DNA of 64,000 nucleotides, taken from a virus. Both the position numbers and the translations under genes were made by a program. A model generated the notes under the pieces. That model did no database searches and had not been told where the DNA came from. It saw only the letters and a list, made by a program, of their open reading frames with translations. Where the stretch lies: IMG/VR virus record IMGVR_UViG_3300012954_000009, positions 38,474 to 102,473 of that record; one strand, given 5' to 3'. Below are positions 8,401 to 35,000 of this stretch, piece by piece. The number at the start of each line of letters is the position of its first letter. The stretch's first letter is position 1.

Positions 8401-11400
8401 CTCTTTAATTCTATTTACCTGTACTTCTGAAGTTTTAGCTCTTACAGTTTTAGTAAAAGTATCTGTTTCCTTTGCTTCTCTAAGTATATAACCAGTCTTT
8501 GTAAACTTAATATTTCTCTTCTTACCACTATTATAGTCTACTATGTTTCTTTCAGTTGCTGTATCAGGATTTGTTTCTTTTTTTATTCTTTCAAACTCTG
8601 CTTTAATTTGATTTTTAAATACATTAAGAGCTTGATCAGTCAATACTATTTCACCTTTCTTATTTTCAACAGCTTTGATGATTGGAAGTTTTGCCATATC
8701 ACCAGTATTAGAAGCCTCAATAACTCTTATCAATACAGGAGCTAAAGCTGTTTCTACAAGCTCACCTGTCACAGGATCTTCTGTAATAATTACTTGATCC
8801 ATTCTACCTGTATTATTTCTAAATAAATAAGTATATGAGTTAACTAAGTTTGTAATAAAATCCTTTGGAGTAAAGTCACCATACGTTGTACCTGTACTTC
8901 TTGATTCATCTACACCATCTTCTGTAATATCTATGTTACCTGTTTTACCACCTGATATTCTAGTAATCCCTATCATACCAGCAGAAGCCATGCTTATAAA
9001 CGCATCATTATTTAGTAACCAGTTATTAATTAAGAAGTCATCATCCTTTGTTTTAAGATCTTCTAACAGCTCAGGATTATTTAATGCAGCCATTCTTTTT
9101 AAATGATATGTAGGCTTTTGATGTGCGTATACTAAGTCACCGTTTGCATTTTTAAATACTGATGCACCAATTGTTTCATCAAATGGAGCGTTTGTCATAG
9201 ACATTTTTTTAAGCACTCCCTGCATACCTACCTCAGATGTACTAAATACATATACATTATTTTTTATGGTACCTTTTAAATTACTAAGGTCTTCTGAGTC
9301 TAATGGTTCTGCGTTTTGATAAGCATCTAATAGTAGTTTTTCATCTGCAGAAAGATTCTCAGGTTTTACTCTTTGTAGTATGCTATACTTAATAAATGTA
9401 GGACTTATAGTAATACCAACTGTTCTAGATAAGTTCTTTGATAGTCTTGTAAATAGATCATTACCGTTCTCATCTTCCTTATACATATTCTCTTTAGTCT
9501 TTTTACCTAAAGGTTTATTTGGTGAAACTGCACTCTGTAAAACATTTAGTACGCTAACAGCTTCATCTCTTGCTGTTTTATCTACTGATAAACTATTTCT
9601 GTAAAGGAAGCTATAAGCTTGACCCCACTTATCTATCTGTGAACTTGCATCATCTCTATTTGCTGCAGAATACGTTAATACTCTTCCGTTCTTATTTCTA
9701 TGTATAAAGATGTAGTCAACTCTAAAGTTTTCCATACCCTTGATAAGAGCATTAAAAAACAGAGGATTCTCAACACCTTCTGTCCATTGATTATTATTTA
9801 TTTTATCCTGAGTGATCCCAAGGTCATTAAAAAATCTATTAACAACAGCTCCTGTTTGTGGATTTGTTTGACCAAATACATATAACTGTTTTAGTATTTG
9901 TGTTGGATCTGTGGTATTCTTTACAGCTTTTAGCATACCATTATATACTTCTGCAAAATCTACAGGAACAATAAGTTTTTCTCCAGGTGTTAATTCTGTA
10001 TTTCCAAAGATGTCTTGCTGTTCTAGCGTAGTAGTCATTATATAACGTCTAAGCTTTGCAGATAAAGAATTAAATCCACCAATTAATGATGCATCTACAT
10101 CCCAATTATCAACGTTTCTTAAACCTTGACTATCTTCTTTTTGCTCTGCCACAAATATTTGATCTTCTAAATTTATATCTACAAGATTTAAAAACTTAGA
10201 TACAGAGTTTTTAATTTCTTCAGGGAAGTTTTCTAATGCATCACTATAGTCATTCATTAGTAGTAGCCTCTCGGTAGTTTGATTTTCATTAGCAGGACTA
10301 CCTACATCATATAGCTTTTTAAAATCTTTTAAGACATCATCTAATAACTCTTCTCTTGTTATATTTGCATTAGTATTAGCCTCTTCTCTTTGTATATAAA
10401 TAGCAGCCATGCTTCTGACCATTGCATTAGCATTGTCAGAATCTAAATATTGAAAACCAACCTTATCTCCTACCTCTATCTTTTCAAAAGGCACTAGAGC
10501 ATTTGCTTCTATTGTTAACCCCTGTAACGCAGCTTGTGTAAAGCGGTTTTCAACCGGTTGTGCTGACTTATACTTACCAGAATCAATATTTTTAAATAGC
10601 TCTGTAAGCTCATTCTTACTGTATACACCCAGTACAGATTTAATCCATTCAAGGATTCTAGTGAATAAAGACTTAACCTCACTACTTGTGTTAGTGTCTT
10701 TTGGGCTCGTCTTGAATTTCTCAAATTCATCTGCCAAATACTCTTCATAATACTCTTCTATCAAACGTGCTTCTGACATATTCTGATATGTGTCAGCAGA
10801 GTTTCTAAATTTATTTAATTCTTCTTTAAAGTTTTTACCCTCAGCTCTTAGCTTAGCTCTTACTTCTCTTCTTGCTATACCTAGATATTTAGTTATCTCT
10901 TGATCAGTAAGTAGCATTCTAAATACACCGTGGAATGCTTCATGATATTTAAATGGGCTTGTTGCTCCTGTATATATAGTACCTTTAACATTAAGACCAC
11001 CAGCTAAACTGTTAAGACCTAAAACAAATGCACCAACTCTAACACCACCTGCTTTCTGATTATTAGCTAATGTTCTTATATCTTGTACAGTAATATATGC
11101 TGGTAAGTTAGCAATAGCCCACGCTTCAAACTCATCTATACTTGTAACATCTGTAACTGATAGCTCAGGACTTATTACTTTATTAGCAATAAGATTATTT
11201 AATTCTGCATTTAATCTTTTTAATTCAGCATCTTGTTTAAGTGCTTTCTTTAAATTCTTTAATTGCTTTGCAGCTTTTAACTCTTCTGTAATCTGAGCTT
11301 TTCTAGCTTTAATATCTTCTTTTAACTTAGCTTTTTGAATTTCTAAATTAGCTTGTGGATTATTAGAAGCAAGTTCTTTAATCTTTTTGTTAACCTGTGC

Positions 11401-14400
11401 TGTTTTATCAGACATTATTGCAGTCTCTCTATCTGATAAAGTTTCTCCTGTCATTACTTTTCTTGCAATGTTCTCTATTCTTTCATTGCTAACTTTACCA
11501 TTATCAATAAAGGCTTGATACTCTTGATCAGAAATTTGTCCAATAGGTGCATCTTCTTCACTCATTTGAGCAACCATGTCTTCTAGAGTCCTAGTATTCT
11601 GTTTTTCTTGCTCAGTCTTTTTCTCTTCTACGTTAGCTGCATCTTCACTAGCTTGCATGCTAGCAGAATCTTGCGTAAGATCCAATCTTATATTGCTTCT
11701 AACTCTACCATCTAGTGTTGTAGTAGTAAGGTCAACCAAGTTTCTAACACCTTTATCTGAAGAAGTAACAGGTATTTTCATATCAAAGCTCTCCTTCATA
11801 TTCTTTGTGGTGACTTTGATACCTTTTTCTTTGGCTACTTCTGTTTCATTCAATAAATCAAATAGTTCTGCTACATCCCCATAGCTTTCTGACTCTGCTA
11901 TTTTTGCTACACCCTCTTGAGATATTACAATAGGATTTGGTTTACCTTTTAGTTTACCCTTAGTGTGTAGTATAATAGGCTTACCCGTCTCTTTATCTAT
12001 AATATTTGCTTCTATTCTACCTCCTGGATCTACTCTTAACTGTATCTTATAACCAGGAATTGTAGAGATAAAAATATCTTTAGTAAAGTCTTCATTCCAT
12101 TTCTTATTATAAACTAAGTCTTTTCTTTTTGACTGGCTTACATTTTCTGGATCAGATAAGTTTTCTTGTCTTGTTTTAACTGCTCTATCTATAAGTTGCT
12201 TAAACTTGTCATTGACAGCTGCTGGTGTAAGTTCTGCTGGGTTTAGTTGTGCTAAAGTATAAACACCCATAGGAGACTTTATGATTGCAACATATGCTCC
12301 CATATTTCTTGCTGTCTTATATAATCCTTGTGATGTTAAATCTTGTTTTATTTTTTCTACAACTGCTGCCTCTTCTTCAGCATCTTCTATATTAGTCTTA
12401 AAGTCTTCCCTTCTTGTTACTTTTGTTTTACCATTCTCATCTACATCAGTCTGGTATCTGTTATCTAGAATAACAATATTACCATCAACAGTATAGTAGT
12501 CTAATTCCGTTAGAGACTTAGGTGCATCAAAGCTAAATGATCCTTCATTATATGTAAATCCAAAACCAGTACCTAAGAAATCACTAAGTTTTACAGTAAC
12601 TGTGCTATTCTTACCTAACTTCTTTTCAACAAACTCTAAGAAGTTAGCTGATATAGTAAAGTTATCTCTAATTTTAGAAAGTGCATTTACTTGATTACCA
12701 AAGAATGTATTTTGCGCAGTATCTTTATCTATTGTTCTAGGATCAATAGCTTGACCTTGTTTATTGTAAATAACAACATTGTCATTTGGTACATATCCAA
12801 ATATACCACTTGCACTATCAGACGGTTTAATACCTTTTGATTTTAAAATACTATTTATTTTTTTAGCAACTTTTGGGTTTCCTATCTTAAGAGCAATAGT
12901 ATATTTCTCTGACTTTCTCTTTATATATGGGTTTGAAGATTTACCTTCATATGCATAGTTCTCTCCTATAACCCCTCCATTAGGATTTACAGTTATAACT
13001 AGTTCTATAGTAGCTCTTTCTTCTGGAGTAAGCTCAGTCATAATCACATCATATCTTCTCTGAGCTTCTTCTCTTGATTCTCCTTTGTTTTGATGAGCAT
13101 ATGTTTTAGTTGGTTCACTAATTTGTAATCTACTTACATCAGTTGGTACCGTGCTAAAGTCTAGTGTATCTATTATTGTATATGCATTAGCAAACTCACC
13201 CGGTTTGATTACTTTTGTAGCATCTTTTCTTTCTTGACCTTTTGTATCTACTTTATCAACAGGAAGCAAGGAAAGATTTCCAAACTTTTCTAGAGATGTA
13301 GGAGATGTAGTTACTATAAATTTGTTACCGTCTGCATCTTCTACTTCTGTACCATATGATAACATTATATCATTTCCGTTTACATCTTTATCAAATGCAA
13401 ACGTATCTGATGTAGGTACTTTTTCTGCTAAAGTATTTAAACCTTTTACTGCTGCCCCTACTTTGCTATATACTCCATTTGGTGTTAATTCAGCTGCTTG
13501 TAAAAGTTCTTCTGATACATCTTTATTATCAACAGTTCTAATTTGCCAGTACTTTGTGGCATCTCCTGAGTCTGGATCTATAGTAGAAAACTCTACAACA
13601 ACATAACCACCTCTTGGTTTTCCAATAACTTTACCACCATACTCTACTTCTTGAACACCGTCTCCTAAATCTTCTGCTTGTTCTACTGTATAGAAGTCAT
13701 TGTATGTCAATCCACCTGCCTCAAGAATATCTTTTACATCTGGATTTGTTTCTTGATTTACTAACCATGATGTAAAACCTTGATCAGTATTATAGGCTTC
13801 CATTAGATCTTTCTGTGATTTATACTCTTCTTTTAAACCACCTTTGTCATACCAATACTTTTTAAGAGCTTCATAAGCTTTTACTGCCAACACAGCTTCT
13901 TGTGAATTTAACCAAGCTGCTTGACTCTTAGCTTTCTTACCAAGAGATTGCTGATCTCTCTTATGCTTTCTATATAATTTATTTAGCAGTGCTTTAATTG
14001 TAGGATTCTGTGTAGTATCAGTACCAAACGTTTGACTTTCTGGAGCATTTATTTCTGCATTATCTAACACACTATCAATCTTATCCTCTGACTCTTTAGT
14101 TTCTTTAGCTCTTGTTTCTGCAGCTTGTGGATCTTGTTGTACATCTTCTGTATCAGATATGTCCATACTATCATTATAATTATCAATGGCTGCACGGACT
14201 TTTAGATATAAATCTTTATCCATTTTAGGATCAACAACACCTTGTTCATTAAAGAATAATTGTAGGTATCTTGCATCTCCTGTTTTTAGGAACATCTCAG
14301 CTTGATCAGCATCAGGGTATACACCTAAATCATTTAATTTATTGAGTAATAAATTTGCTTCAATCTTGTTAATATACTTCTTTACTCTCTTTTCAAAATC

Positions 14401-20647: not shown

Positions 20648-23404
20648 TTACGGTAGCATTGACCCACTATAAAATGGGACAGCCATTCTTTTTAATTTTT
20701 TTGTTTGTCTTCCTTTCCTTTCTCCACCTCTTGCTTGTACATATCCTGGAGTTTGTGTTGACATATTAGTATTATTACCTGGATATCCAAATGGATTTGT
20801 ATATGGATTCATCATTGCATTTTGATATTCTCTTTGGATATTAGTTTGTTGAGGTGTTGAATTATTATTTAGACCCATAAACATTGTAAGCATCTCAGGT
20901 GATACCTTGGTATCTGCTGGCAACTCTCTTCTTAATTTTGCATAACTGTTTAAGAATGCCTGTTGCTGATCAACCGGTTGTACTGCATCAAATGCTCTTG
21001 CATCCACTTGTCCTATCATACCGCCTGTCATAGGATCTATATTAAAGTAATCTTGTGTAAGATTCATATTATATGTATTGGCTCTGTTAGTTAAAGCATT
21101 AGCATATGCATCAGCGTATTGCTCTCTATCAAAGTTCTTTTCATCCATATAAGTTTGTAATGCATTAACTGTATCATCATACTCTTTAACATTTCTATCT
21201 CTTCTCTCACGGTTAATCTTCATGTCAATCATTGCATTCTGATACTCACCTCTATTTACAATACCTACATTCTTGGCTTGTATATCATTTACTGCATCTG
21301 CAACAGCTTTCATTGTTTTACCAACTGCAGCACTATTTCTTGCTGATCCTGCAGACGCTCCTGAATACATATTATTTGCATTCATCAATATAGAGTTCTG
21401 CTCATTAACTGCAGCAATAGTTCTTGTTGGATCTATTACATCATAACCAACAGATACATCTTCTACTTCAGGTTGCCATGGTAAAAATAAATCTCTTTCT
21501 CTATTAGCAATAGCATCCATCTTTAGTAAGTCCTGTACCCAAAAATCTGCATTAGGTAAAGGTTTAGGTCGTGCTACATCTGGTGGTGTAAATGGATCTT
21601 TTTCTTCTTCTACTACAACTTCACTAGGTTTATATGTCTTAGTAATATTAAGCTGATCTTTCTGACCTAAAGTTGTATTACCATACCATGTATCTGCTTT
21701 AGATACACTTTTCATGTATTTAAATTCAGGATCATCCCCTTCTTTCCATGCTGGGTTTAATACTACATCACCTTGATCATCAACACCCTCTGTGAAATAG
21801 CTACCAAGTATTTCTTCATCAAACTTTTCACCATTGATCATCTTTTTATACTCCTCAATTCCTTGCTGTTGTAAGTTATTGATATAACCTTGTTGGAAGG
21901 TTAGAGTTTCTTGTTTACTAGGTACAGTTAATGGAATATAGCCAGGTTGACCTTCCATCTTTGTATTATAAAGATCAATAATACCTCTTAATTCTTTTGT
22001 TGCATATCCTCCAGCTTTATCTAAAGAAAATCCTTTATCTAATCCTTTTGATCTTATATCAAAACCATTATCTTCTAAAAGCCCTGGGTGTTCTTGAGCA
22101 AACTTATATATCTCAAAGTTTCTTCTTTGAGCTTCTTTATAAAATTTATGATAGTCATCTTCTGATACTGGTTTCCTACCTGCACCTTCAGTACCTTGAA
22201 CATAAGCTTCATACCTAAGCTTTCTAGCATCAGCAAACTGATCTGAGTCATAATATTCTAGATACTCTGGAGAACCACCAGTCAATGATGTTTCTATAGG
22301 ATCTGTTCCTTCTTCTGGTTGAATGGTTGTTGTAGTTGTAGATACATTATTAGTATTATTGGTATTGTTAGTATTGCTAACATTAGGATTACCCATACCG
22401 TTATAAGGATCAAGAGGATATCTATCTTGGAAATTAGGAATACCGTCTCCATCTGTATCTTGTTTTCTAGCTCTTCTGTTGCCAAAGAAACCATACTGTG
22501 CTTCAGGTAATTGTTCTCCCATCATTGAAGGATCACCCATAGGCATTGGAGCAGCCATTCCAGGCTGAGGCATCAACTGTGCTTGTGCTAAATCAACTTG
22601 ACCTTCAGGTGAAGGTGGCATTTGACCTTCTCCTTGTTGTTGAGCTTGTGCCATCAACTGCTGCATCATCATTATTTTCTGTTGCTGCTCTGCTGGTAAA
22701 GCTTGAAATGCTTTCTCTTGAGCTTTTTGCATATTTATCTGCTCTATTTTTGCAGTAAATTCTATTGGGTCTTCACCTATAGACATTAGATAAGGGTGAG
22801 ATGCTACTGGTACACCTTCTTCAAAATCTTTTTTAAGTTCTTGACCAAAGGCTAATGTAGATAAACCTAACTTATTTTTCTTCAGCATAAGTTCTGCAGA
22901 TTTAACTTGAATGTCATCTGCATATTCATCTTCAATGGCTCCGTAAAATTTATTTAATTGATATTTTTTAGATACATCAGCAGGTGTCTTAGACTTTCTG
23001 CTAGTAATTCCAAACTCTTTAAGCTCTTCACCTTTCATCTTCAACGCTTTGGTATCAGAAAAGATAAAGGACTGTTCTGGTAAAAACATAGGGACTCCAC
23101 CACTACTATGTCTTGGACCAGTAATATTATATAAACCAAAGTTACCGTCATTATTTAAATCAGTTAAAACAGTTTCTCCTCCTTCAGCTTCTATATTAGC
23201 TTCTTCTCTTGGTACAGATGATAAGCTGAATCTTACATCTTTATCATTATCATCATTTATCTGAGAACCTGATACAGTTGTAGGTATAGTTGTTAAACCA
23301 AAATTTAATTGATCTCCTGTAGTAGGTCCACCTTCTTGCATAGGTATCAACTCTCCGTCTTTCATAGACATTCCTTCCGGTAGACTGTTAATTTTTATTT
23401 TCAT
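20648..23404 (-). CDS. Internal virion cargo protein with EAEGGE / GPxHxxGG module
   Basis: 918 aa, Cys-free. NIEAEGGETV...GPRHSSGGVP motif seen in Bacteroidota phage internal proteins, Q/M/P-rich linker, DTDGDGIPNFQD Ca-binding-like motif. Confidence 0.6.
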   Translation of the reverse strand: MKIKINSLPEGMSMKDGELIPMQEGGPTTGDQLNFGLTTIPTTVSGSQINDDNDKDVRFSLSSVPREEANIEAEGGETVLTDLNNDGNFGLYNITGPRHSSGGVPMFLPEQSFIFSDTKALKMKGEELKEFGITSRKSKTPADVSKKYQLNKFYGAIEDEYADDIQVKSAELMLKKNKLGLSTLAFGQELKKDFEEGVPVASHPYLMSIGEDPIEFTAKIEQINMQKAQEKAFQALPAEQQQKIMMMQQLMAQAQQQGEGQMPPSPEGQVDLAQAQLMPQPGMAAPMPMGDPSMMGEQLPEAQYGFFGNRRARKQDTDGDGIPNFQDRYPLDPYNGMGNPNVSNTNNTNNTNNVSTTTTTIQPEEGTDPIETSLTGGSPEYLEYYDSDQFADARKLRYEAYVQGTEGAGRKPVSEDDYHKFYKEAQRRNFEIYKFAQEHPGLLEDNGFDIRSKGLDKGFSLDKAGGYATKELRGIIDLYNTKMEGQPGYIPLTVPSKQETLTFQQGYINNLQQQGIEEYKKMINGEKFDEEILGSYFTEGVDDQGDVVLNPAWKEGDDPEFKYMKSVSKADTWYGNTTLGQKDQLNITKTYKPSEVVVEEEKDPFTPPDVARPKPLPNADFWVQDLLKMDAIANRERDLFLPWQPEVEDVSVGYDVIDPTRTIAAVNEQNSILMNANNMYSGASAGSARNSAAVGKTMKAVADAVNDIQAKNVGIVNRGEYQNAMIDMKINRERRDRNVKEYDDTVNALQTYMDEKNFDREQYADAYANALTNRANTYNMNLTQDYFNIDPMTGGMIGQVDARAFDAVQPVDQQQAFLNSYAKLRRELPADTKVSPEMLTMFMGLNNNSTPQQTNIQREYQNAMMNPYTNPFGYPGNNTNMSTQTPGYVQARGGERKGRQTKKLKRMAVPFYSGSMLP

Positions 23405-23406
23405 AA

Positions 23407-26400
23407 TTATAGTATTTCTATATCAGCTCCAGCTGAAATTAATTTAGCAACTGTTTTATAATCTAAATCAACAATATTTTCTTCTTGTTTCATTGGAGGC
23501 ATCATAAAGGTTTCTTTACCCATTCTTGCCTCATAAGCTCTTATGTTATCTGGTTGTATTATACCAGTATTCTCATCTGTTAAACCTCTATCTCCTTCTC
23601 TTGATTCAACCATTCCATATGCCTTATCAGCCATACCAGAATAAACTAAATCTTCTTCTGCTTTACGTGCCTTCCTGTTCTTAAACATTTCATTTATAAC
23701 TCCTGCTCCTGCTACAAGAAAGTTAGACACATCTCCAAACTTTTCAACAAATCTACTATCCTTAATACGGTTGACTGTTCCCATCAACTTATTCTTTCTT
23801 TTTATCTTTGGATCTTGCATAGCTGTAGGATCTTCAGTTTGTGTTGCTGCAGGATCTCCAGTTTGTGCTATATTTAAACCTCTAAGTTGCATGTCCGGAG
23901 GATCAACTTCAAGTGGTTGTATACCAATTGGTTCTAGTCTAGGAAAATCTCCAGCAGGTGCAGTTACTGTAAATTCATCAAGTTCTATATTCTGTTGAAT
24001 TTCATCATCTGGTATTGTTGCATTTGCAGGATCTTGCAAATATTGTAATAACTGTGTATTTTGTGCTGCAGTTCCACTATACTGCTGACCTAAATTAGCA
24101 TCTTGATAGATAGCACCTCTTTCAGGTATGCTGGGTAAATCTTGACCCATACCTGAATAATACTCATAAAGTGTATTAGCACCACCATCTTGTTTTTCAT
24201 CAAGTGGTTTTTTAGCGTTTAACAAAGATTTAATTGTATGTAAGTAGCCACCATCATCATTATACCAAGTTTTTTCGTCCATGTTATATGAGTTACCATC
24301 ATCATCAACAGGACCTGTATTAAATGGTATTCTATCTTTATATGTTACTGTAGTTTGACCACCATCAGGATTTATTTCATTTGCTATATGTTGAAGTAAA
24401 TCAAAATTAGCCATTCTTTTAGCCATGCCCAAATTCTGACTGCTACCTAAAAGTAAAGTATCAGCACCAGTAACACCCATCTGAGACATAATATCTTTTA
24501 CAGCTGTCTCATCACCTTTGTTATTTAATCCAAACTGCTCTATATATTGCTGCAAGTAAGGATGATCATAATCTTTAATTCTTTTCTTTCTTTCTTTATT
24601 AGTTTCACCTGCATTTTGCCTCATGTCAAGTTCAGGTGGATCTGCCATTTGATCATTTAGAATCAGCTGCATAGGATCATTAGGATCATCTACTTTACCA
24701 GTTGTGTAATCACCATCTCTGACACCTTGTATAACTCTACTTACAACATCTTTATCACTATCAGATCCTACTGAAGTTAAACTTCCTAAGAAATTATTAT
24801 ACATATCTTTACCAGACTCTTTAATTTGAGTAAGTAAAGTTCTATCTGAATCTTTGCCATAATCCATATAAGCTGATACCTCATGACCTAATCCCAAAGC
24901 ATTAGCACCTATAATTCCAGCCATGTCATCCGCTCCAACAAAATCTAAAAGTCCTCCTATGTATGGTGTACTTTTTATTTTATCACTAATAGCTCTAGCA
25001 GTAAGACCACTTGTAGTTCCATGACGTAATGGATCTGCATTTTCTGTATAGAATTTTCTAATTACTTCACCTTTTCTACCAATATCACTATCCCTAAATT
25101 TTTTCTCTAAGTTATCTAATTCTCTATAAAGGTTTTGTTCTTGCACATGATCTAGCTGACCTTCTTTCATGTACAAGCTATTTAATTGATCAACAACATT
25201 TTGATATTCATCACTTTGATAAAATGCAATTTCTGCTTCTTCAAACTGTTTGTATCCCGGAATATCTTCTAATCCGGCTTCTTTATCCATAACACCACCT
25301 AAAGATTCATTAACCTTTCTTTCTATGCCTGGGATATCACCTTTCCTTACTAAATCATAAACACTACTTTCATCTCTAGTATTATTTAAATTTATAGTCT
25401 CAATTCTTTGCTTTTGGAGTTCTCTTAATTGCTGCATTCCAGCTTCTAAGTCTAATTTTTGTTGTTCTGTAGTAGGTATGCCTCCTGCATTTTGATATAC
25501 AGGTAATTCCGTACCTCTAGATGCTTTACCTTTTATATTAGGTTGATTACCAACACCAATAGCTTGTGTTATATTTCCTTTCTTAAATGCAGGATTAGTA
25601 ATTGCATCTGTAGCTTGTGTACCAATACTTGTATTAGTATCCATAACACCAGCATATCCTGCTGTATCTTTTATTAATGAACCAGCTGCTGTTGCTAAAC
25701 CATATCCAGGTACTGCAGATGATGCATTTAATATTGCATTTTCCGTATGTACCTTTCTTTGCTCTGATCCTTCTGGTGCTGCATATGCTCTTACTCCAGA
25801 TAAAGCTGAATTAAGAAGATCTGCTCCTGCCGCAATAGGTCCAGAATAATCTTGCATGCCTGCTACAGTTAATCCTGTTTGTGTATAATCTAAAGCTTTA
25901 TTAACTGTTGGATTTTGAGAAATAGTTTGCTTAGTAGATTGTCCTTTATAATCAGGGATAAATCCTTGTTCTCCTTTAAGATAACCTGCTAAGTCAAAAC
26001 CAAACTGTGCTCTTTGTAAAATAGATGCTGAATCTAAATTTTCAACATCAATAGATCTAGAATCTATTTTACCCATGTCTATAGAACCTCCGTCTATACC
26101 TACTGTACCACCACCTTGTCTTTTTAAATTAAACATGTCTAATGAATACTGTTGTGATGGATCACCTGTGTATACATTATTTAACATCATTGTATCATAT
26201 AAATATGGATTTGCACCAAAATATGAAGCTGCTGCACCATCTTTGTTTACACCATAAGATACACCTGCAGGAAGCTTATCATCTTTTAAAAGCCCAAAGT
26301 CTTGAGCAAGAAGTTCAGCATGTCCTGGATTATTTTTAAGACGTTCTGTAAAATCAGATAATGAAACACCATCATTAATTAGATTCATCATATTACCTGA

Positions 26401-27273
26401 CAAACGTTTGTTTTTACTTAGTCTATTTTTGAGTTGATTATTTGCAGAATTTAAAAACTTATCTGAGTATGGATTATATATCATGTCATACTGACCAGTA
26501 TTAACATTATAATTTAGTTTTGAGTTATCCATTAAATCTTGATTATACTCATCTTTAGTTCTAAGCTTCCCATCAAAAAGATCTTTGTTTGTTACAAAGT
26601 AATTATCTTCACTGTCATTCGGGTCAAAGGTAACTTCATAATTATAATATGAACCTCTTCTATCTTTTTGTCTTAGTCTTTTAGCTTTGTTATCTCTAAA
26701 GCTTCCATCCATCAAACCATCACCATCAGTATCTTGTGAGCTAAACATGTTATTAAAACCCTGAGCTAATACCCCAAGAGCTCCATCAACATTACCTTTA
26801 TTACCTAAATTTTGTGGTAAATAAAAATTCCTAGCCGGTCTATATCCAGTAATAGGATTTGCATTAGCTGTAGATACTGTACCAAAGAATCCACTGGTAG
26901 GCATTCTCATAGCTCCTCTAAGAGCCATACCTGGTGTAATACCTATATTACCTGCTTGTGCTTGAGGAAGAGTGCTACCTTCAATATTTCCTTTATTAAT
27001 ACTTTCTCTAGAAGCACTTGCTTGTTCTTGTATTTGAGACATAATATTTGACAACATTGTCTCATCATAACCTAAACTTGTAAAAGCACTTTGTATTTCA
27101 TCTAATGGAATTTTTTGATCCATAAGATTTTGAAATACTTCTACCTCACTTATACCTCCTTGTAGTTTTTCTCTAATTCCTTGAAGAACACTATCAGTAT
27201 CCATAGTCATTTTAGGTACGGGAGCACCACCCCTCTGCAATAAACTTTTTTTATTTAAATTTAATCTTCTCAT
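23407..27273 (-). CDS. Modular (polyvalent) virion cargo protein with pre-toxin-like, toxin-like and peptidoglycan-binding-like modules
   Basis: 1288 aa, Cys-free. Modules are separated by QxGG/AQxG linkers and include LDYTQTGLTVAG...GADLLNS, ADPLRH...GHE...DMYNNFLG and YSGTAAQNTQLL. Confidence 0.55.
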   Translation of the reverse strand: MRRLNLNKKSLLQRGGAPVPKMTMDTDSVLQGIREKLQGGISEVEVFQNLMDQKIPLDEIQSAFTSLGYDETMLSNIMSQIQEQASASRESINKGNIEGSTLPQAQAGNIGITPGMALRGAMRMPTSGFFGTVSTANANPITGYRPARNFYLPQNLGNKGNVDGALGVLAQGFNNMFSSQDTDGDGLMDGSFRDNKAKRLRQKDRRGSYYNYEVTFDPNDSEDNYFVTNKDLFDGKLRTKDEYNQDLMDNSKLNYNVNTGQYDMIYNPYSDKFLNSANNQLKNRLSKNKRLSGNMMNLINDGVSLSDFTERLKNNPGHAELLAQDFGLLKDDKLPAGVSYGVNKDGAAASYFGANPYLYDTMMLNNVYTGDPSQQYSLDMFNLKRQGGGTVGIDGGSIDMGKIDSRSIDVENLDSASILQRAQFGFDLAGYLKGEQGFIPDYKGQSTKQTISQNPTVNKALDYTQTGLTVAGMQDYSGPIAAGADLLNSALSGVRAYAAPEGSEQRKVHTENAILNASSAVPGYGLATAAGSLIKDTAGYAGVMDTNTSIGTQATDAITNPAFKKGNITQAIGVGNQPNIKGKASRGTELPVYQNAGGIPTTEQQKLDLEAGMQQLRELQKQRIETINLNNTRDESSVYDLVRKGDIPGIERKVNESLGGVMDKEAGLEDIPGYKQFEEAEIAFYQSDEYQNVVDQLNSLYMKEGQLDHVQEQNLYRELDNLEKKFRDSDIGRKGEVIRKFYTENADPLRHGTTSGLTARAISDKIKSTPYIGGLLDFVGADDMAGIIGANALGLGHEVSAYMDYGKDSDRTLLTQIKESGKDMYNNFLGSLTSVGSDSDKDVVSRVIQGVRDGDYTTGKVDDPNDPMQLILNDQMADPPELDMRQNAGETNKERKKRIKDYDHPYLQQYIEQFGLNNKGDETAVKDIMSQMGVTGADTLLLGSSQNLGMAKRMANFDLLQHIANEINPDGGQTTVTYKDRIPFNTGPVDDDGNSYNMDEKTWYNDDGGYLHTIKSLLNAKKPLDEKQDGGANTLYEYYSGMGQDLPSIPERGAIYQDANLGQQYSGTAAQNTQLLQYLQDPANATIPDDEIQQNIELDEFTVTAPAGDFPRLEPIGIQPLEVDPPDMQLRGLNIAQTGDPAATQTEDPTAMQDPKIKRKNKLMGTVNRIKDSRFVEKFGDVSNFLVAGAGVINEMFKNRKARKAEEDLVYSGMADKAYGMVESREGDRGLTDENTGIIQPDNIRAYEARMGKETFMMPPMKQEENIVDLDYKTVAKLISAGADIEIL

Positions 27274-27275
27274 AG

Positions 27276-27291
27276 TACAATTATAATATAC
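27276..27291 (-). promoter_or_regulatory. Putative phage late promoter GTATATTAT-W4-GTA
   Basis: GTATATTATAATTGTA, intergenic, 2 nt before the ATG of the 1288-aa gene. Confidence 0.65.
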
Positions 27292-27318
27292 AAATAATTA
27301 GGCACAAAATCTAATAAT

Positions 27319-30300
27319 TTACATGCTTCCCTCGTCAAGGTAGCTCATTATATAGTTTGGTGCAGACATTCCAACCTGACCTGCTTTGTTATAATAAACC
27401 CTATTAAGTTTATCATAAATAGCTTCTGCTTTTTTTAAGTTTGATTTATTATCATACTTACCATTAACATAATCTCTATATATTTTAAGATCAGAAATCT
27501 CACCTCCTATACTTTTATATTCATTAATTATGTAAGTATATTTTTCATTATTTATAGCAGCATCATAGTCTTTATTAAACTCATCATTGTTTCCTAATAT
27601 CTTATTTACGTAAGTTCTTGTCTCCTTTGGTAGCTTATCAACCCAATCTAATGAATTGTATATATCAAAGTCAGCTTTCTTTTCATTTAAGAAATCAACT
27701 AAATTTCCTCTACCCCAATTGTATGCTGCTAATGTTTTTGCTATTCTTACTTCATCTGACTGATTTTCTTTATCTATAAATGAAGCATTATATAAATCAT
27801 TCATGTACCACTTTTGTACATCAACTGCATTGCTTACATTAGTTAAGTCTACATCACCTTCAATATCATTTGCTTTAATGTAATCACCAAGAACATTAGG
27901 TCTAATTTGTGTTAAACCTTTTGCGTTTGCTGATGAGGTTACTTTAGGTCTAAACGTTGATTCTGCATATGCTTGTTTTAATAATATATCAGAACCTACA
28001 CCACCTCCTTCTTGAAAGGTTGTCTTTTCTTTAATGGTAAAGTACTTTGAATTTTTGGCTACACCCCGTGTATATACATCTCTATTAGGGTCTTTGCTGG
28101 TTACACCCGCCCATTGCCTTGGTAGATCTTGCATTATATCATCTACCTTTCTATTATTATAATAGTATGAAAGTATAGCTGCAGTCCCTAGTGCCGCCTT
28201 CTCAGCATCTAAGAAATCTTTATTACTTGTTATACCTAAAGTTTTCAGTCTTTGCTTTAGATCTCCTCCTTGTTCTGAGTCTTTCTCAACCCACTTCCAT
28301 CTAAACTGAGTTAGACCTACGCTATTTTGATTTTCATCTGCACCATACGTGTCATACTTGGACATGTAGTCTGGACTACTTGAACCAGATCTATCAAAAT
28401 ATTTATTTGCAGCTCTACCTAAATTACCTACTGCACTATGGGTATCACCAAAATTAGTCTCATTACCAAGTATACCAAAAGCAACTTTAGCAATATCATT
28501 ATAAGCATCTCCATCAACCTGCATAACTTTCATTATCTGTTGTTTGTTATCTTGTAAAGACTTTGCAAATGGTACTACAACGTTATTATATTCTTCTTCA
28601 TCATTAAAATCAAAGTATGTAAATTTATCATTTGCAAATGACTCCTTGTCTATATCTATTTGTATAGGTCTATAATTAAGAGTATTTCTTGTTTTATTTA
28701 TACCTTGCCCTCTTTGTTCATTACCTTCAAGATCAATATAACTCTCAGCGTCTGCTCTATTCCGAGAGGAAGTTTTAAAGTTTAACTGTCCATTTTGAAA
28801 TACAAACTTATTTCCATCATCTTCAGGTAAAATAAATATCTCACTTCCTTCTCCTATATCATGTATGTTATGCATATCTATTAGATCACTACACGTACCG
28901 TTAATACAACCATTAGTCATTCTCATGTTAAAAGGATCTTCAGCAGTTAGTGCATTAATTCTATTTGCACTTTTACTACTTGGTACTGTATGTATAACAG
29001 TAGATACTTCATTACCATCTTCATTTTTTAATACAAATGATGGTGTTTTTCTATTCTGCCCTGAGTCATCATAGAAACCGCTATCTTCATTTACTGTACC
29101 AATGGTAAATTTACCCGCACCAGTTGACTTATTACCAGCATTCCAATTTGTTTCAGCAGAATATCCAGGCATTTCCATAAGAGCATCTACAGAGCTAGCA
29201 CCTGTTTCAGCCATTGCTTTATTTAAACTGGCTTGGTCAAGCTGCTCTCCATTATAAAAATAATCTGCTTTAGTTACTGTCTGTGCATCTCCTGCATTGG
29301 AGCCAGATAGTATTGGATAGCTCTCTTTAGGTTGCTCCTCACCAGGATAATATAAATGCATTCTTCCCGCATTTTCATCAACAATAAGATATGGTTTTTC
29401 AGCATTTGCTAATTGATAGCTAACTATAAGATCTGCTTGATCCATTCTGTTAAGATTAGCATTATTCTTTTTTATATTCTCAAAGTCTTCAAACTCATCA
29501 AATTCTACTATATTGTCATCAGTATAGGGACTAACAACAGACCTGTTCTGCTTATAAATCTTTTCTCTTTGCTGTGGTTTTAAACCTGCTGAAACCATAT
29601 CTTCTTCACTTGGTTCAAATGTTTCGCCTGCTAAATTAGTACCAAATTGTTTTCCGTTATATTCAAATATTTTATTAGCTCCATAATAATCTCTTGCAAT
29701 TCCAAATGCTGAATTAAAATCTTTAGCCTTGTTTATTTTATCATTTATTTCTTCTGCGCTTAGTGTAGCATTTGCTGCATTAGAATTTGTATTTGCAGGA
29801 GGTAAAGTATTAGAAGGTTTTCTCTTAAACTGACTTGGTGTAGATAATAATTTATTTCTTAATTCTATATTCCCAGCATATGATCCATCTGTAAGTCCTT
29901 CAGCTTTTGCTTGTGACCAAGGAGTACCTGTAACATCTTGCCATATTTCACTTACAGAACCACCTTGTTGTTTTTTACTTATTGTTTTAACTTTCCCATT
30001 ATGAGTTCGTGCATATATATTATTTTCATCTTCACCTATCTTTGGACCTGAGTAGTTTTTACCTTTCCATTGCCAGCTAACTGTCCCTCCTTTTTCAAAA
30101 CCAAAAAAATCACTTATACTTTTTCCAGCATCTTCTAAAGCATCACCTGCAGGATTTATAACATTCTTCTGCCACCACGGGATTATATTATCTACACCTT
30201 GTGAAGAAATATCAAATGGTGTATTTTCTCTAATGGGTTTATTTACATATTGTTCCCAACTAGCTTCTGCTGCAGAAGGAATTGTTCCGTCTGGTAATTT

Positions 30301-32010
30301 TATAACGGCATCAACAAAATCTCTACCTGATGCAAACAAGAGAGGTTTCCACCATTCATCACCCGCTTGCACTATCTTCTGTATCATAGGATTTTCAGAT
30401 AACCCTTCTACTGCTTGAGTAAGGTCTTGCCCATCTAAACCATCAAGATAATCTGTAACTGCTGTAATAGTTCTTGGATCAATGTCTTTTTTAGCAAACC
30501 CTAACTCCTTCGCAAGAAGTTTTCTAATACCTTCTCTCTTAGTTACTTTATTTCCTTTGTAATCTTGTTCTGGGTCATAGTAGTCACTAAAAGTATTTAG
30601 AATATTATCCATAACTTGATTTGGATCAGTTATCCCTGCTGTTGTATTTGCTGGATTATCTGGATCTAGACCTAACCCTAAACAAACACCTGTAGCACAG
30701 TTAGACTCTATAAAGTCATATCTTCTTTGATCATCCCCAGCTGAAATAGGAAGTTCATTTCTTCCTAAACCTAAGTTTCTGTGAACATCACTTTTCCTGC
30801 TAGGTCTAAACTCTTGTGCTTGAACTAAAAAATCTTTGAGTTCTTCATCTGGTAATCTTAAATCCACAATTTGTACATCCTCATCATCTTCATAATCTCT
30901 TTCTTTTACAGGTTTATTTCCTTGTGTTGCCCATCTATTTATATATCCTTTATATTCAGTACCGGGTAATTTATTTACCAACTCTCCTGTTTCTTTATTA
31001 AACAACACTGCTTCAATATGACCAGGAGTATTCTTTCTGTGTCCTACTGGGTAAGCAATAACTCTAAGACCATAATCAGAAGTATCAAGTTCTTGAATAT
31101 TCTGCTGAATTTTTTTCTTTCTACTTTTGAATACTTCTGTTAAACCTGATTGGATATTGTTAAGTATACCGCTTGACTCATCAGATACATTTTCACCATA
31201 TATTTTTTCTCTGATTGCTGTCTCTGCATTGCCAGATGCCAGTGTCCAATCTGGTTGTTGTTCTGAGTCCCATTCTCCTTCTCTTTTTCTTGTATAAAAT
31301 TTATCTCCTTCTCTTTTATATTCATATGAGTCTCCATTTGGTCTAATTATTTCTTGACCGTCTTGAGCTTTAGATAATGTACCACCTTTTCCAAACCTAT
31401 GTGTAAATGAAATAACAGGATCCATTTTTTTATTAGAGTTACCTTTAAGTGGTATATTAAAGTCAAGACCTATATTAGTGTTTCTTGACAAAGGTTGATT
31501 TATACCTACATCAATATTACCTTGATTTTGAGATTTTACATCAAAGGGTAAAACATCATCAAAGTATTGTAATGGTAACACACCCCTCACGTCTACTTTA
31601 GTTTGTGTAGGTAGTACAGTGCTAAATCTTGGGTTAATGTTTCTAAAATCTGTTGAAACACCAAGCTGTATATTTTTTTTATCTTTTAGTGGGTTGCTTA
31701 ATGCTAATGTGTCTCTTAAAGGTATTTCAAATACTCTACTGCCAGGAAATTTGTAATCATCATCATTAGGGTTCATAATTCTACTGTTGCCTAAATTATC
31801 CATTCCAAGTATAGAAAAAGGGACGTTATCCATAGTTATTGGTGTGCCATCTTTATCTCCTCTTATAACGTTAAATGGATTCTCAAAGTCAGGACTATCT
31901 AGTTTATAACCTTCAGTAGAAAATACCCCGGTTACATATGTAAACATCTCATTGGGTCCACCTGGTAAACCTCTTCTTTCTGTCTTGGTATGTTTTTTCT
32001 TATGTGCCAT
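27319..32010 (-). CDS. Multi-enzyme virion protein: permuted papain-like (PPPDE-type) peptidase, YkuD-like L,D-transpeptidase, lysozyme-like domain and SLT lytic transglycosylase
   Basis: 1563 aa. GHIEAVL...YDFIESNCA; LIVDENAGRMHLY...HTVP...TNGCIN; GILGNETNFG...SVGLTQ; QAYAESTF...AKGLTQI...LAAYNWG...ETRTYV (classic SLT). Confidence 0.8.
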   Translation of the reverse strand: MAHKKKHTKTERRGLPGGPNEMFTYVTGVFSTEGYKLDSPDFENPFNVIRGDKDGTPITMDNVPFSILGMDNLGNSRIMNPNDDDYKFPGSRVFEIPLRDTLALSNPLKDKKNIQLGVSTDFRNINPRFSTVLPTQTKVDVRGVLPLQYFDDVLPFDVKSQNQGNIDVGINQPLSRNTNIGLDFNIPLKGNSNKKMDPVISFTHRFGKGGTLSKAQDGQEIIRPNGDSYEYKREGDKFYTRKREGEWDSEQQPDWTLASGNAETAIREKIYGENVSDESSGILNNIQSGLTEVFKSRKKKIQQNIQELDTSDYGLRVIAYPVGHRKNTPGHIEAVLFNKETGELVNKLPGTEYKGYINRWATQGNKPVKERDYEDDEDVQIVDLRLPDEELKDFLVQAQEFRPSRKSDVHRNLGLGRNELPISAGDDQRRYDFIESNCATGVCLGLGLDPDNPANTTAGITDPNQVMDNILNTFSDYYDPEQDYKGNKVTKREGIRKLLAKELGFAKKDIDPRTITAVTDYLDGLDGQDLTQAVEGLSENPMIQKIVQAGDEWWKPLLFASGRDFVDAVIKLPDGTIPSAAEASWEQYVNKPIRENTPFDISSQGVDNIIPWWQKNVINPAGDALEDAGKSISDFFGFEKGGTVSWQWKGKNYSGPKIGEDENNIYARTHNGKVKTISKKQQGGSVSEIWQDVTGTPWSQAKAEGLTDGSYAGNIELRNKLLSTPSQFKRKPSNTLPPANTNSNAANATLSAEEINDKINKAKDFNSAFGIARDYYGANKIFEYNGKQFGTNLAGETFEPSEEDMVSAGLKPQQREKIYKQNRSVVSPYTDDNIVEFDEFEDFENIKKNNANLNRMDQADLIVSYQLANAEKPYLIVDENAGRMHLYYPGEEQPKESYPILSGSNAGDAQTVTKADYFYNGEQLDQASLNKAMAETGASSVDALMEMPGYSAETNWNAGNKSTGAGKFTIGTVNEDSGFYDDSGQNRKTPSFVLKNEDGNEVSTVIHTVPSSKSANRINALTAEDPFNMRMTNGCINGTCSDLIDMHNIHDIGEGSEIFILPEDDGNKFVFQNGQLNFKTSSRNRADAESYIDLEGNEQRGQGINKTRNTLNYRPIQIDIDKESFANDKFTYFDFNDEEEYNNVVVPFAKSLQDNKQQIMKVMQVDGDAYNDIAKVAFGILGNETNFGDTHSAVGNLGRAANKYFDRSGSSSPDYMSKYDTYGADENQNSVGLTQFRWKWVEKDSEQGGDLKQRLKTLGITSNKDFLDAEKAALGTAAILSYYYNNRKVDDIMQDLPRQWAGVTSKDPNRDVYTRGVAKNSKYFTIKEKTTFQEGGGVGSDILLKQAYAESTFRPKVTSSANAKGLTQIRPNVLGDYIKANDIEGDVDLTNVSNAVDVQKWYMNDLYNASFIDKENQSDEVRIAKTLAAYNWGRGNLVDFLNEKKADFDIYNSLDWVDKLPKETRTYVNKILGNNDEFNKDYDAAINNEKYTYIINEYKSIGGEISDLKIYRDYVNGKYDNKSNLKKAEAIYDKLNRVYYNKAGQVGMSAPNYIMSYLDEGSM

Positions 32011-35000
32011 TATCTAAAAGATAAATTAAGTTTTGTATTATTTAACTTGAGTAACATTTTTCTATCATTAGACATTCTTCTTCTGAGTAAGAACTTATTA
32101 TAGTAGTGTCTAAACTTCTTATGTTGTAAAGGATCTTTATTATAGTTTAAGTTAGTAGCATTAAGATCTCTAATGTATCCGTTTTCTTGTGTAAAGAATA
32201 TTTGTTGCTCTGCATTTGTAAACTCTCCTCTGTCATTTGTAATATCCCAGAACTGATTGATCCTATACTTCTGCTCTATCTTAGATGCCACAACATCAAT
32301 ATCATTTAGATTAATTTGTGGAAAGTTAAGACGTGCAAGAGGATCATTCTTAGGCTCTTGATTAATTCTAAGAAGTCCAGAAACTTGTTCTGTATTATGT
32401 ACTATTAGCTCATCAAAGTTAAAATCTAAATCATGCCATCTGTCATCTCCACAACCATTAAACATATCTCCTTTGTATACATATGACTCTAATTGATATT
32501 CTAAATTTCTTACTGTATTTACTATCTGTCCGCTATTCTCAACAAACTCAACTTCCCATGGATAATCTTCTCCATAGTAATTTGCAAATAAATCACATCT
32601 ATAATTATGTCTCCACAGAGAACCTCTTTCATAACTTGCTTGAGTAAACTGTTGAAAGAAAAATGTGCATATTAACGGGTTTGGATTTGTGTAACTTGAA
32701 CTACCAACTAAATATATATCATCACACTGACCAGCTTCGGTAGTTGTTGCACCTACAAATGGAGGAGGTGGACATTCACATTCTATCTTTCTACATATAG
32801 GTGGATTATCAGGATCACATTCACCAGTAGCTTCTGTGTATCCGTTAGCACCTGGAAATACCATTGTATAACCAGGAGGACAATCACATTCTGGAGGTGT
32901 TCCACATACCAGACCAGCAATAATAGAAGATGCAGTAGCAATATCATTTGGTACATTAGCATCTATTCCAAACTGAGTTTGATCTCCAGCAAAACCATTT
33001 GTTGATGTTGATGTTGGACCAGCGGTACAAGTTATATTATTCATTATAGCTTGGTTAGGAGCATTCTGATTTAGTCCAGCAAATAATGAAATTACAAATT
33101 CAAAAGCTGCGCCTGAACCTCCCAATGTAGGAGATTGGAATGGGCATCCTACATTAGCTGGTGCTGCTGCAGTACTATCAGTTATAAATAAAAGAATAGA
33201 TCTATAAGCAGGATTTGCACTTCTATCTCCTAATTCTGAAGTAGCTCTCTGCTGTCTAACTCCATCACCGCCAACCATACCGGCTTGTATCATGGTACCA
33301 CCACCACCGCCTCCCCAGTTAGCATTATACCAAGCTGTCACAGCAGGCTCACCAATTGTATTACTCATGGAAAATCCATTCGGGTTCATTGATAATGATA
33401 TAGGATTATTTGCAGGAGGGTTAAGCATACCAGACCATCTAGTAAATCCTACTTGTATATTTCCATTCTGCATTCCATTAAAAACAACAGGATCATTTAA
33501 GAACCCAGTTAAAAATGCTTGTTGAGCAGTTCTACGTGCACCATTTGTACTACCAGAAACATCCATTGCAACAACTATATCTAATAAACATTGTTCTAAA
33601 CCTCCTGTTATAGTTACTCCAACTTCCTCAACATTAACTGGTGCAGGAGCAGTCTCTTGTAGTGTTATTTCACACTGCCCGGTTACAGCATTAAATGTAT
33701 ATCCAGGTGGGCAATAAGGTTCATCTGATTCAATTGTCTTAGTAGTTAAAAAGTGATTTATACTTGGTAGGCAAAGTTCTGGGTGCCAGTCATGAAATGA
33801 TATCCACGCTTTTGCTTTTGGATCATAACTTACTGTCCATGAAGCATCTTCAAAATATAATGGGTCTCCAAGATCAATTGGTACATATTTATCAGTAGGT
33901 ACTGGAACTAATATAGGATCTGTTATAGGTTCTAATATAGGATCTAATACAGGATTCGTAGGACCAGTAGGATTAGTTATTGTTTTATTTGGAGTTACAG
34001 GACCAGGAGTATATGATGTACTTCCTAAACCTACAGTTTTACTTAACTGGGCTTGTGTTTGTGCAAACTGTATATTACTTCCTACATCAGTTCTTGATGG
34101 TTTTACTGGATCAGCGGTACCAATAGGACCAGTGCCTACAGGACCGGTGCCTACAGGACCTCCATCAGTTACTAAATAAAACTGGCAATCATCTTTATCA
34201 AATACAATGTTCCATTTTTCTTTTGCTTTATAATCTTTTTTACAGAAATAAACAACATCATCATTTATATCATATATCACCTGACAACCTACTCCTATAA
34301 CAGGATTATCTGCTAAAGGTGTTTCTTCTAACTCAGGGAATTGTCTTATTAATTGTGAAGGTAAATATTTATTAAACCACCACTTCATACCTTGATTGGC
34401 AATATTTTCTAATTTACCTGTATAATGGAAAACTTTACCTTGTGCTTGTGATAAAAAGAATAATCCCATTGGTGTGTTCATGACAGCTCTGTGACTTTCA
34501 CATGAACCATATTCATTTGATAAGTCTGAGTTTGCAACATTCTGAAATGGTTGACTAAATAACCCGCCATCACCTAGAGTCAATTTTGTACCTAAGTCTG
34601 TTTTCAAAGTATCAAGACCTTGGAACATCTGTGGTGATTGATATGGGAAAAATATTATAGCTCCACTCTTGTTAATAGGTTTTATTACATTAACAGGATT
34701 TTTAAAGTCTTTATAGTTGTTAGGTAAGAATACTCTCCAAAAATCTTTCTTAGATTCTTTCTGTGCTTGTAAAGAATATATTAATCTTTTAGGATAATAA
34801 CTAAAACATTTTTCAGCAACATAAGGATCATAATCTCTTGTTTGTACTTCACCAAAGTTAGATATCTGTGTCAAAAATTTTGAGACACTTAATGACATAT
34901 CATACTTATAAAAGTTATCTTCTTTTACAATATCTGCATGAAATAAATCATCTGTATTAGAGTATGTATAGGTATCATAATGGCGTTTAGCTTGAGTATC

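Follow-up and report, generated by a model that had tools for sequence, protein, structure and literature searches.

A conserved junction peptide at the module seams of three adjacent predicted cargo proteins of a crAss-like phage

Background

What marks the borders between the modules of giant phage cargo proteins, and what such a mark might do, are questions raised by three adjacent genes in a 64,000-nucleotide stretch of DNA (the window), which makes up the right-hand 64 kb of a virus record consisting of a single 102,473-bp contig (IMGVR_UViG_3300012954_000009) and belongs to an uncultured crAss-like phage. The three genes (c1563, c1288 and c918, named for the lengths of their products in amino acids, aa) lie on the minus strand, as do all large genes of the window, and their products are predicted cargo proteins that are probably carried in the particle and injected. 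An initial annotation of this DNA had listed about 16 short strings at module boundaries of the three proteins, had described them as a recurring xQxGG linker, and had suggested either a di-glycine cleavage site of the kind found in African swine fever virus (ASFV) or a repeated capsid-loading tag. All 16 strings can be found at, or close to, the positions assigned to them, and most can be accounted for as copies of a single junction peptide of 14 to 18 residues, whether whole, halved, split or decayed.

Definition of the junction peptide

A profile of the junction peptide was built in three rounds from about 280 cargo homologs in the protein collection, with 165 unique copies. The consensus of the relatives is x-A-K-Y-G(95%)-G-[S/E]-L(90%)-P(90%)-K-A(75%; Y/F 24%)-Q(97%)-x-G(73%)-x-E, in which the conserved positions are G5, L8, P9, A/Y/F11, Q12 and G14, and it indicates that the earlier strings "xQxGG" and "GG-TLSKAQDG" belong to opposite ends of a single peptide. 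The profile gives 281 matches of at least 4 bits in the approximately 280 cargo homologs, versus 1 in reversed and shuffled decoys of twice the size; the LPKAQ half-profile alone gives 166 matches of at least 3 bits versus 0.5 in decoys, and the GG half alone is too short for scoring. Clear copies in the cargo open reading frames (ORFs) of relatives include NGGSLPKAQDG, RYGGQLPKAQEG, KYGKELPRFQDTGE and RYGGSLPYYQNRGE.

Copies in the window are confined to the 1563-, 1288- and 918-aa proteins. Outside these three, no ORF in either the window or the whole genome has a profile match, in agreement with the initial annotation, which had seen no such pattern in the neighbouring 1101-aa protein or the virion RNA polymerase (RNAP); the one motif-bearing "upstream" ORF, in a related contig (L004), is homologous to c1563 and is no RNAP. 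Four of the approximately 16 sites reach the profile (c918 aa 292-309; c1288 aa 583-600 and 95-112; c1563 aa 205-222), two pairs of sites prove to be single split motifs, and the others are decayed copies, half-motifs or look-alike terminal peptides. A recurring linker at the seams therefore stands as a conserved peptide, but its definition by xQxGG or GG does not, GG dipeptides being no more frequent in the three proteins than expected (26 observed versus 28.6 expected); QxGG is mildly enriched (6 versus 1.7). The motif is never found within 100 aa of a C-terminus and is common near N-termini, often 10-90 aa away or directly behind a conserved N-terminal segment (N-handle).

Within genomes, where copies of the motif share a residue, they use the same codon at 235 of 421 positions, versus 227 expected from codon usage. 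Synonymous identity is not in excess, and the similarity of the copies is evidently maintained by selection on the protein. A DNA repeat, a recombination signal and a recent copy were rejected as explanations on the same count, which is what codon usage predicts. The junction peptide is real, selected and recurring; no published description of it was found, the literature on "LPKAQ" giving unrelated papers only.

Exchange of modules at the peptide

Homology breakpoints were collected from an all-against-all BLASTP comparison of cargo homologs, giving 2289 clusters. Breakpoint clusters within 15 aa of the motif glutamine number 275, versus 81 +/- 8.7 by permutation (maximum 106). A breakpoint lies within 15 aa of 194 of the 252 internal motifs, and the right-hand ends of homology gather 0-4 residues past the glutamine. 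In the window, 11 of the 16 listed sites are within 10 aa of a breakpoint cluster (null 5.1 +/- 1.8, P=0.0016), and all seven sites covered by AlphaFold2 models are in or at the edge of segments with a pLDDT confidence below 50; glycine-rich peptides tend to be predicted as disordered, so that this agreement is supporting and not independent. The placement of the motifs at module boundaries by the initial annotation is upheld by these figures, as is the gain and loss of modules in relatives exactly at the motifs, of which explicit joins are given below; the breakpoint counts are not phylogenetically independent, but the joins leave no ambiguity.

Comparison of the homologs supports the gain, loss and swapping of modules at the motif, both within one gene and between the three cargo genes. 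The architecture of the cargo proteins is that of beads on a string, in which family-specific N- and C-handles enclose an interchangeable payload and the flexible linkers carry one peptide.

Seams of the individual cargo proteins

The c1563 gene (27319-32010, minus strand, as are all motif coordinates that follow) is a 1563-aa ORF that comprises an N-handle (aa 1-98, with the pattern RGLPGGPNE...FPG..VFE.P), variable modules, an L,D-transpeptidase-like module (aa ~686-1330), an SLT domain (aa 1340-1445) and a C-handle (aa ~1500-1563), with homology breakpoints at aa 98, 212, 638, 679, 1338 and 1502. The SLT domain is recognised by Pfam (PF01464, 1.7e-10, 40.9 bits versus a cut-off of 21.3). 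The L,D-transpeptidase-like module (window 28021-29955) has a YkuD/Ldt fold according to Foldseek (probability 1.0; Bd1075, LdtA, YkuD) and the signature H...(~30 residues)...NGCING; the Pfam YkuD family is below threshold on the window's c1563. By these predictions c1563 is a two-enzyme peptidoglycan-remodelling cargo. Its relatives add LysM, YkuD, SET, VanY, PG_binding and ART-PolyVal domains and assorted HExxH modules.

The junction copy nearest the N-terminus of c1563 (RFGKGGTLSKAQDGQEII, 31345-31398, aa 205-222, 5.9 bits) is at the breakpoint cluster of aa 212 and inside a stretch of pLDDT below 50 (aa 190-284). In one relative (P0026) the module downstream of this copy follows the N-handle motif directly, and the N-handle of relatives ends directly in P(M/I)AQDG. 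Further on, the motif is split: FEKGGTV, a 31-aa beta mini-domain and TISKKQQGG occupy 29959-30099 (aa 638-684, breakpoints at aa 638 and 679). The AlphaFold2 model has a run of four strands (aa 643-678) flanked by low-confidence residues, which end at G642 on one side and cover Q681-G683 on the other; this bears out the small module that the initial annotation had placed between FEKGG and KQQGG. Relatives close this cassette with LPKAQ(S/E)G, and one of them (P0033) deletes the cassette, leaving KKGGTVSKKQEGG.

Two further seams of c1563 are half-motifs. TFQEGGG (28000-28020, aa 1331-1337) directly precedes the SLT domain, so that an unrelated module does start right after the motif, as first annotated; 106 homology ends gather at aa 1338, and pLDDT is below 50 from aa 1332. 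Relatives fuse K-x-K-x-(F/Y)-Q-x-GG to SLT, LysM or other modules, and in one (P0134) a crAss_CARG1 domain at aa 860-911 comes after the alignment with c1563 ends at aa 853, a seam equivalent to that of the window's SLT domain. YKSIGGE (27499-27519, aa 1498-1504) is at the start of the C-handle and at the breakpoint cluster of aa 1502 (n=50), where relatives read (Y/F)-K-x-x-GG-(E/P).

Among the variable modules of c1563, aa ~313-472 (window ~31065-30595, pLDDT ~90) have the conserved pattern PGHIEAV...SNCATGVC, a histidine followed by a cysteine approximately 115 residues on. The same module recurs in cargo proteins of other phages (L005_1972, P0061/62/66/122/124/130) and is a candidate for a permuted hydrolase of papain-like or NlpC/P60 type.

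The c1288 gene (23407-27273, minus strand) is a 1288-aa ORF and a mosaic of modules with no Pfam family. Its N-terminus (MRRLKVNKKSLLQKGG) and its C-terminal tail (aa ~1166-1288) are conserved, it has 23 mosaic homologs, and the C-terminal tail is common to L002_979, L004_1117 and L005_819. The module at aa 419-608 occurs elsewhere too, in ORFs of the c1563 and c918 types from other phages. One junction copy (GNIEGSTLPQAQAGNIGI, 26938-26991, aa 95-112, 5.7 bits) has no breakpoint cluster nearby. The next site is split (25999-26124, aa 384-425, breakpoints at aa 384 and 426) and consists of KRQGGGTV, a 26-aa SID-repeat insert and ILQRAQFG; two relatives (P0009 and P0010) are unsplit at this site and read YK(A/KQ)GGSLP(K/E)AQ(G/F)G. 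A module of approximately 220 aa that is present in five relatives (P0004/6/8/9/10) is missing from c1288, and the motif is its right edge.

The strongest copy in c1288 (KASRGTELPVYQNAGGIP, 25474-25527, aa 583-600, 8.9 bits) is adjacent to the breakpoint at aa 601, and the upstream sequence GVG.Q..KSKAGRGYELP(Y/S)YQ is joined in different phages to IPTTEQQ..., ANTLYEYY... or TKKERKNRIK.... Two of these downstream modules stand within c1288 behind degenerate strings. ELDMRQNAGE (24604-24633, aa 881-890, breakpoint at aa 881) corresponds to GYELPYYQGAGE at the orthologous positions, with the pattern GYELP(Y/S)YQ(G/E)AGE, before the same TKKERKNRIK module; LDEKQDGG (24181-24204, aa 1024-1031, breakpoint at aa 1028) corresponds to GRGYELPYYQAGG before the same ANTLYEYY module. 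Because the orthologous positions hold the full motif, both strings are decayed copies of it.

The c918 gene (20648-23404, minus strand) is a 918-aa ORF (AlphaFold2 mean pLDDT 66) with an N-domain at aa 62-255 that is 60-70% identical over 820 homologs, a disordered linker, a domain at aa 364-590, a long-helix domain at aa 620-865 and a disordered tail. The best copy of the junction peptide in the window (PSMMGEQLPEAQYGFFGN, 22478-22531, aa 292-309, 16.8 bits) is in the middle of the linker (aa 256-363, pLDDT below 50), between two confident domains, and 84 of 120 members of the c918 family carry the motif, mostly at aa 250-350. Nearer the N-terminus, GELIPMQEGG (23327-23356, aa 17-26) is a conserved peptide that resembles the half-motif and is not scored by the profile; M-Q-x-GG-x-(S)TGDQ is kept throughout the family, and MQEGG opens a disordered stretch (aa 23-61). 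QARGG sits in the disordered tail. These two strings, with LQRGG and EARMG, belong to conserved terminal peptides that are specific to their families and only resemble the half-motif.

No Pfam family was found for c918 and no Foldseek match at E<1; a VIA-wide comparison gave only generic helical hairpins (Z<=8), and the PDB sequence profile only a low-complexity TBP match. Directly behind the junction motif of c918 is a thrombospondin-type-3-like calcium-binding signature (DTDGDGIPNFQD, aa ~311-325, window 22430-22475), which is followed by an Asn/Thr-rich low-complexity run.

Virion gene block and candidate proteases

The cargo genes are part of a block in the order 2156-aa RNAP-like protein, c1563, c1288, c918, 1101-aa protein, 4943-aa protein (p4943) and 1881-aa protein, and this order is kept in five IMG/VR contigs (L001-L005). 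The 2156-aa RNAP-like protein, upstream of the cargo genes, matches virion-protein PHROGs (phrog_37948/15100) and is approximately 25% identical to giant virion proteins of Cellulophaga and Flavobacterium crAss-like phages. The window also encodes a Crass-type major capsid protein (PF23898, 1.3e-31), crAss tail ring proteins 1 and 2 (PF24228, 4e-8; PF25702, 2e-16) and a P22-like portal (PF16510, 7e-8; window 59593-62364). A further protein of the phage, of 1211 aa, is muzzle-like. The three cargo proteins have no match in cultured phages (tblastn of c918, the 11-kb region and a 30-aa motif segment against 50,697 phage records) and no transmembrane helices (the maximum 19-residue Kyte-Doolittle mean is 1.21).

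Three other features of this block may be recorded. The RNAP-like protein contains a run of six glycines (NANWGGGGGGTMIQ, aa 1723-1728, window 33297-33314) and a mild enrichment of GG (25 versus 16.4), and the junction motif is absent from it. A 416-aa SbcD/Mre11-like DNA repair exonuclease (window 41669-42919; phrog_704, 3e-46) is encoded inside the tail and ring block, an unusual place for a nuclease. The 1881-aa gene (window 2-2491, continuing to genome 35322-40964) is the last of the virion block and has a weak PD-(D/E)XK nuclease match (E 5e-4) that is below the cut-off.

Proteases were sought by Pfam and PHROG scans of nearly every ORF of at least 110 aa in the 102-kb genome; left-arm ORFs of less than 110 aa, a few of 110-146 aa (e.g. 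genome 895-1224 and 6687-7073) and several small window ORFs are outside the Pfam survey. Prohead, clan-CE, C39 and ClpP/S49 proteases were not found in this survey, in which divergent enzymes could be missed, and the 188-, 519- and 440-aa ORFs between the portal and capsid genes have no protease match in Pfam, PHROGs or PDB sequences.

The giant virion protein p4943 (2494-17325, minus strand), from which the junction motif is absent, contains a zincin-like YHEAFH at aa 2128 (aa 2128-2132 are at window ~10930-10945). The sequence F(K/R)YHEAFH(A/G)VFRM, followed approximately 70 residues on by EE.(L/M)AD.FE, is invariant in five p4943 relatives that are approximately 37% identical, and gp47 of crAss001 reads TYHEAFHVVF at aa 2159. 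Pfam finds no peptidase in p4943 or the three cargo proteins, nor any MPTase-PolyVal match; HExxH is absent from the three cargo proteins and present in p4943 and many c1563 homologs. Judged by its motif, the zincin-like region of p4943 is the only virion-borne candidate for a protease. The sole Pfam-recognised peptidase-like domain of the genome is elsewhere, in the replication arm, where a DUF2201_N putative metallopeptidase and VWA-like protein (HELLH) is encoded at genome 14353-15510; the DUF2201_N/VWA gene pair is common in crAss-like phages. Neither candidate can be tied to the junction peptide, because both occur in crAss001, which is without the peptide.

A DUF7831 domain (PF25176, 3e-13) was also noted in p4943 (aa 4516-4623, window 3457-3780), and the same family is present on a c1563 homolog (P0131). 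The giant protein, too, may have modules in common with the cargo genes.

Relation to known systems

The closest structural counterpart is crAss001, of the same virus order, in which the cargo proteins C1 (gp45) and C2 (gp46) are likewise encoded beside RNAP-block genes (PMC10172136), and which shares with the window the families of the capsid, ring 1, ring 2 and portal proteins (Crass MCP, P22-like portal). Bayfield et al. 2023 (PMC10172136) describe short stretches of C1 that are docked on the rings, the muzzle and the portal, and mention neither a motif nor proteolysis. The junction peptide is absent from crAss001 gp44-gp50 and from the cargo regions of Cellulophaga phi17:2 and Flavobacterium Fpv1. 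No match to the portal-binding domain crAss_CARG1 (PF25725) was found in c918 or c1288 at E<=5, or in c1563 at E<=0.01, and an Atlas feature match of 0.90 in the crAss_CARG1 comparison is a lead only. A relationship of c918 to crAss001 gp45 was considered and rejected (hhalign of the c918 family versus gp45, probability 0.2).

The cargo proteins also resemble the polyvalent proteins that Iyer, Burroughs, Anand, de Souza and Aravind 2017 (PMC5512222) describe from phages and conjugative elements, for which delivery with the DNA and release of domains by an embedded metallopeptidase (MPTase) were proposed. Both have several unrelated effector or enzyme domains per polypeptide beside virion genes, and extensive mosaicism; c1563 in particular combines an Ldt/YkuD-like fold and an SLT domain in one phage polypeptide beside virion genes. 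The polyvalent proteins, in contrast, are described without a conserved linker or junction peptide (the word "linker" occurs 0 times in PMC5512222), and fixed N- and C-terminal handles are a feature of the window's cargo, not of polyvalent proteins.

Processing in the prohead of giant phages (phiKZ gp175, SPN3US; T4 gp21, with capsid-targeting leaders) offers a parallel in that packaged, later ejected proteins bear a short recurring consensus and N-terminal leaders are removed in the prohead. The phiKZ prohead protease gp175 has the cleavage consensus S/A/G-X-E. Prohead sites of giant phages are a 3-residue consensus ending in Glu, whereas the peptide of the window is 12-14 residues around Gln, and no S77/S78-type protease gene was found in the window phage by the Pfam/PHROG survey. 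The GG-X processing of ASFV pp220/pp62 and of adenovirus proteins by clan-CE proteases likewise involves glycine pairs near module borders. Unlike those systems, GG is neither the conserved core nor enriched in the window's cargo, and no C48/C5/C63-type protease was found in the Pfam survey of nearly all ORFs of at least 110 aa, in which divergent enzymes could be missed. The di-glycine cleavage site of the initial annotation is accordingly abandoned: the core of the peptide is L-P-x-(A/Y/F)-Q, and the glycines flank it.

Possible functions of the junction peptide

The reading tentatively preferred here is that the junction peptide is an uncut short linear recognition motif, a multivalent docking handle, in which case any module set between two handles would be packaged and ejected without signals of its own. 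This is favoured because N-proximal copies exist and the motif avoids C-termini, because inserts of 26-31 aa are tolerated between the GG-S/T and LPKAQ halves, and because single window sites decay and others are kept, a pattern to be expected if the sites are redundant and multivalent. It is further favoured by the failure to find a dedicated maturation protease family in the genome survey, and by the docking of crAss001 C1 segments in 12 copies on the tail rings, muzzle and portal (PMC10172136). Several points weigh against the docking handle. The sole structural precedent, crAss001, is without the peptide. The near-invariant Gln with small residues, at 6-8 specific positions, would also fit a high-specificity viral protease site. 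Chains of relatives mix periplasm-type (SLT, LysM, YkuD, VanY) and cytoplasm-type (SET, ART-PolyVal) modules, which would be easier to use if released, and the giant protein of the virion takes a conserved zincin-like motif along with it.

Cleavage is the chief rival, possible and only a little less probable than docking: a phage protease, of which the YHEAFH region of p4943 would be the best candidate and the DUF2201_N protein the next, would cut the cargo chains into modules in the capsid or after ejection. The motif does lie in flexible linkers exactly between modules, its Gln is 97% conserved with a glycine two residues on and L-P upstream, and the chains of relatives combine modules of different cellular destinations. 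The zincin-like motif is invariant in the relatives and crAss001 gp47, but it is not specific to phages with the peptide, and Pfam recognises no peptidase in p4943. Drobysheva et al. note a zincin-like domain in the p4943 gene class and suggest, as speculation, that polyproteins of the RNAP block, where fused, are "likely cleaved". Iyer et al. 2017 proposed that polyvalent proteins are processed by the MPTase, yet the same source reports that N4 virion RNAP with an MPTase domain is packaged unprocessed (PMC5512222). In giant phages of the phiKZ-like kind, both head and ejection proteins are reported to be cleaved by the prohead protease (PMC7411985, PMC5694885). Many window sites are decayed, however, the motif can be split by inserts, and cleavage at copies near N-termini would free peptides of only 10-30 aa. 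More specifically, a zincin of the p4943/gp47 class might cut the cargo after the Gln of L-P-K-A-Q-x-G, in the capsid or on ejection, and so free changeable periplasmic and cytoplasmic effectors; this form of the proposal is somewhat less likely still.

Two accounts that involve neither docking in the particle nor cleavage are less probable again. The peptide could be a passive seam, a flexible hinge or cap for independent folding or unfolding that looks conserved since in-frame recombinants survive only there. The region is indeed Gly/Pro-rich and disordered, recombination joints gather at it, and individual copies decay; but a hinge needs no L-P-K-A-Q at 75-97% conservation across unalignable flanks with saturated synonymous sites, and would have no role 10-20 aa from an N-terminus, so that this account is improbable. 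By analogy only, the repeated peptide might instead capture, after ejection, a factor of the host envelope or cytoplasm by which the chain is pulled or positioned, the peptide being a glycine-flanked conserved epitope in disordered regions of proteins that cross the envelope. Colicin Tol/TonB boxes sit in Gly-rich disordered translocation domains. The peptide is unlike the known Tol/TonB boxes, and its central Pro disfavours beta-augmentation; capture of a host factor is the least likely of these explanations.

Conclusions

The Crassvirales are among the most abundant phages of the gut and the sea, and the seam peptide offers a tangible starting point for learning how they load and eject megadaltons of protein. 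Sequence comparison supports a description of the cargo proteins as plug-and-play modules at a conserved seam, and the peptide gives predicted module borders for hundreds of giant proteins that lack annotation. Its L-P-x-A-Q core is a mutable target, for which the shortlist of partners comprises the zincin region, the portal, the ring proteins and the muzzle. If the zincin does cut the cargo, the result would be a payload cassette that is programmable and released by a protease, in a phage order that ranks among the most abundant. The seam peptide itself suggests a natural rule for placing foreign modules into phage cargo.

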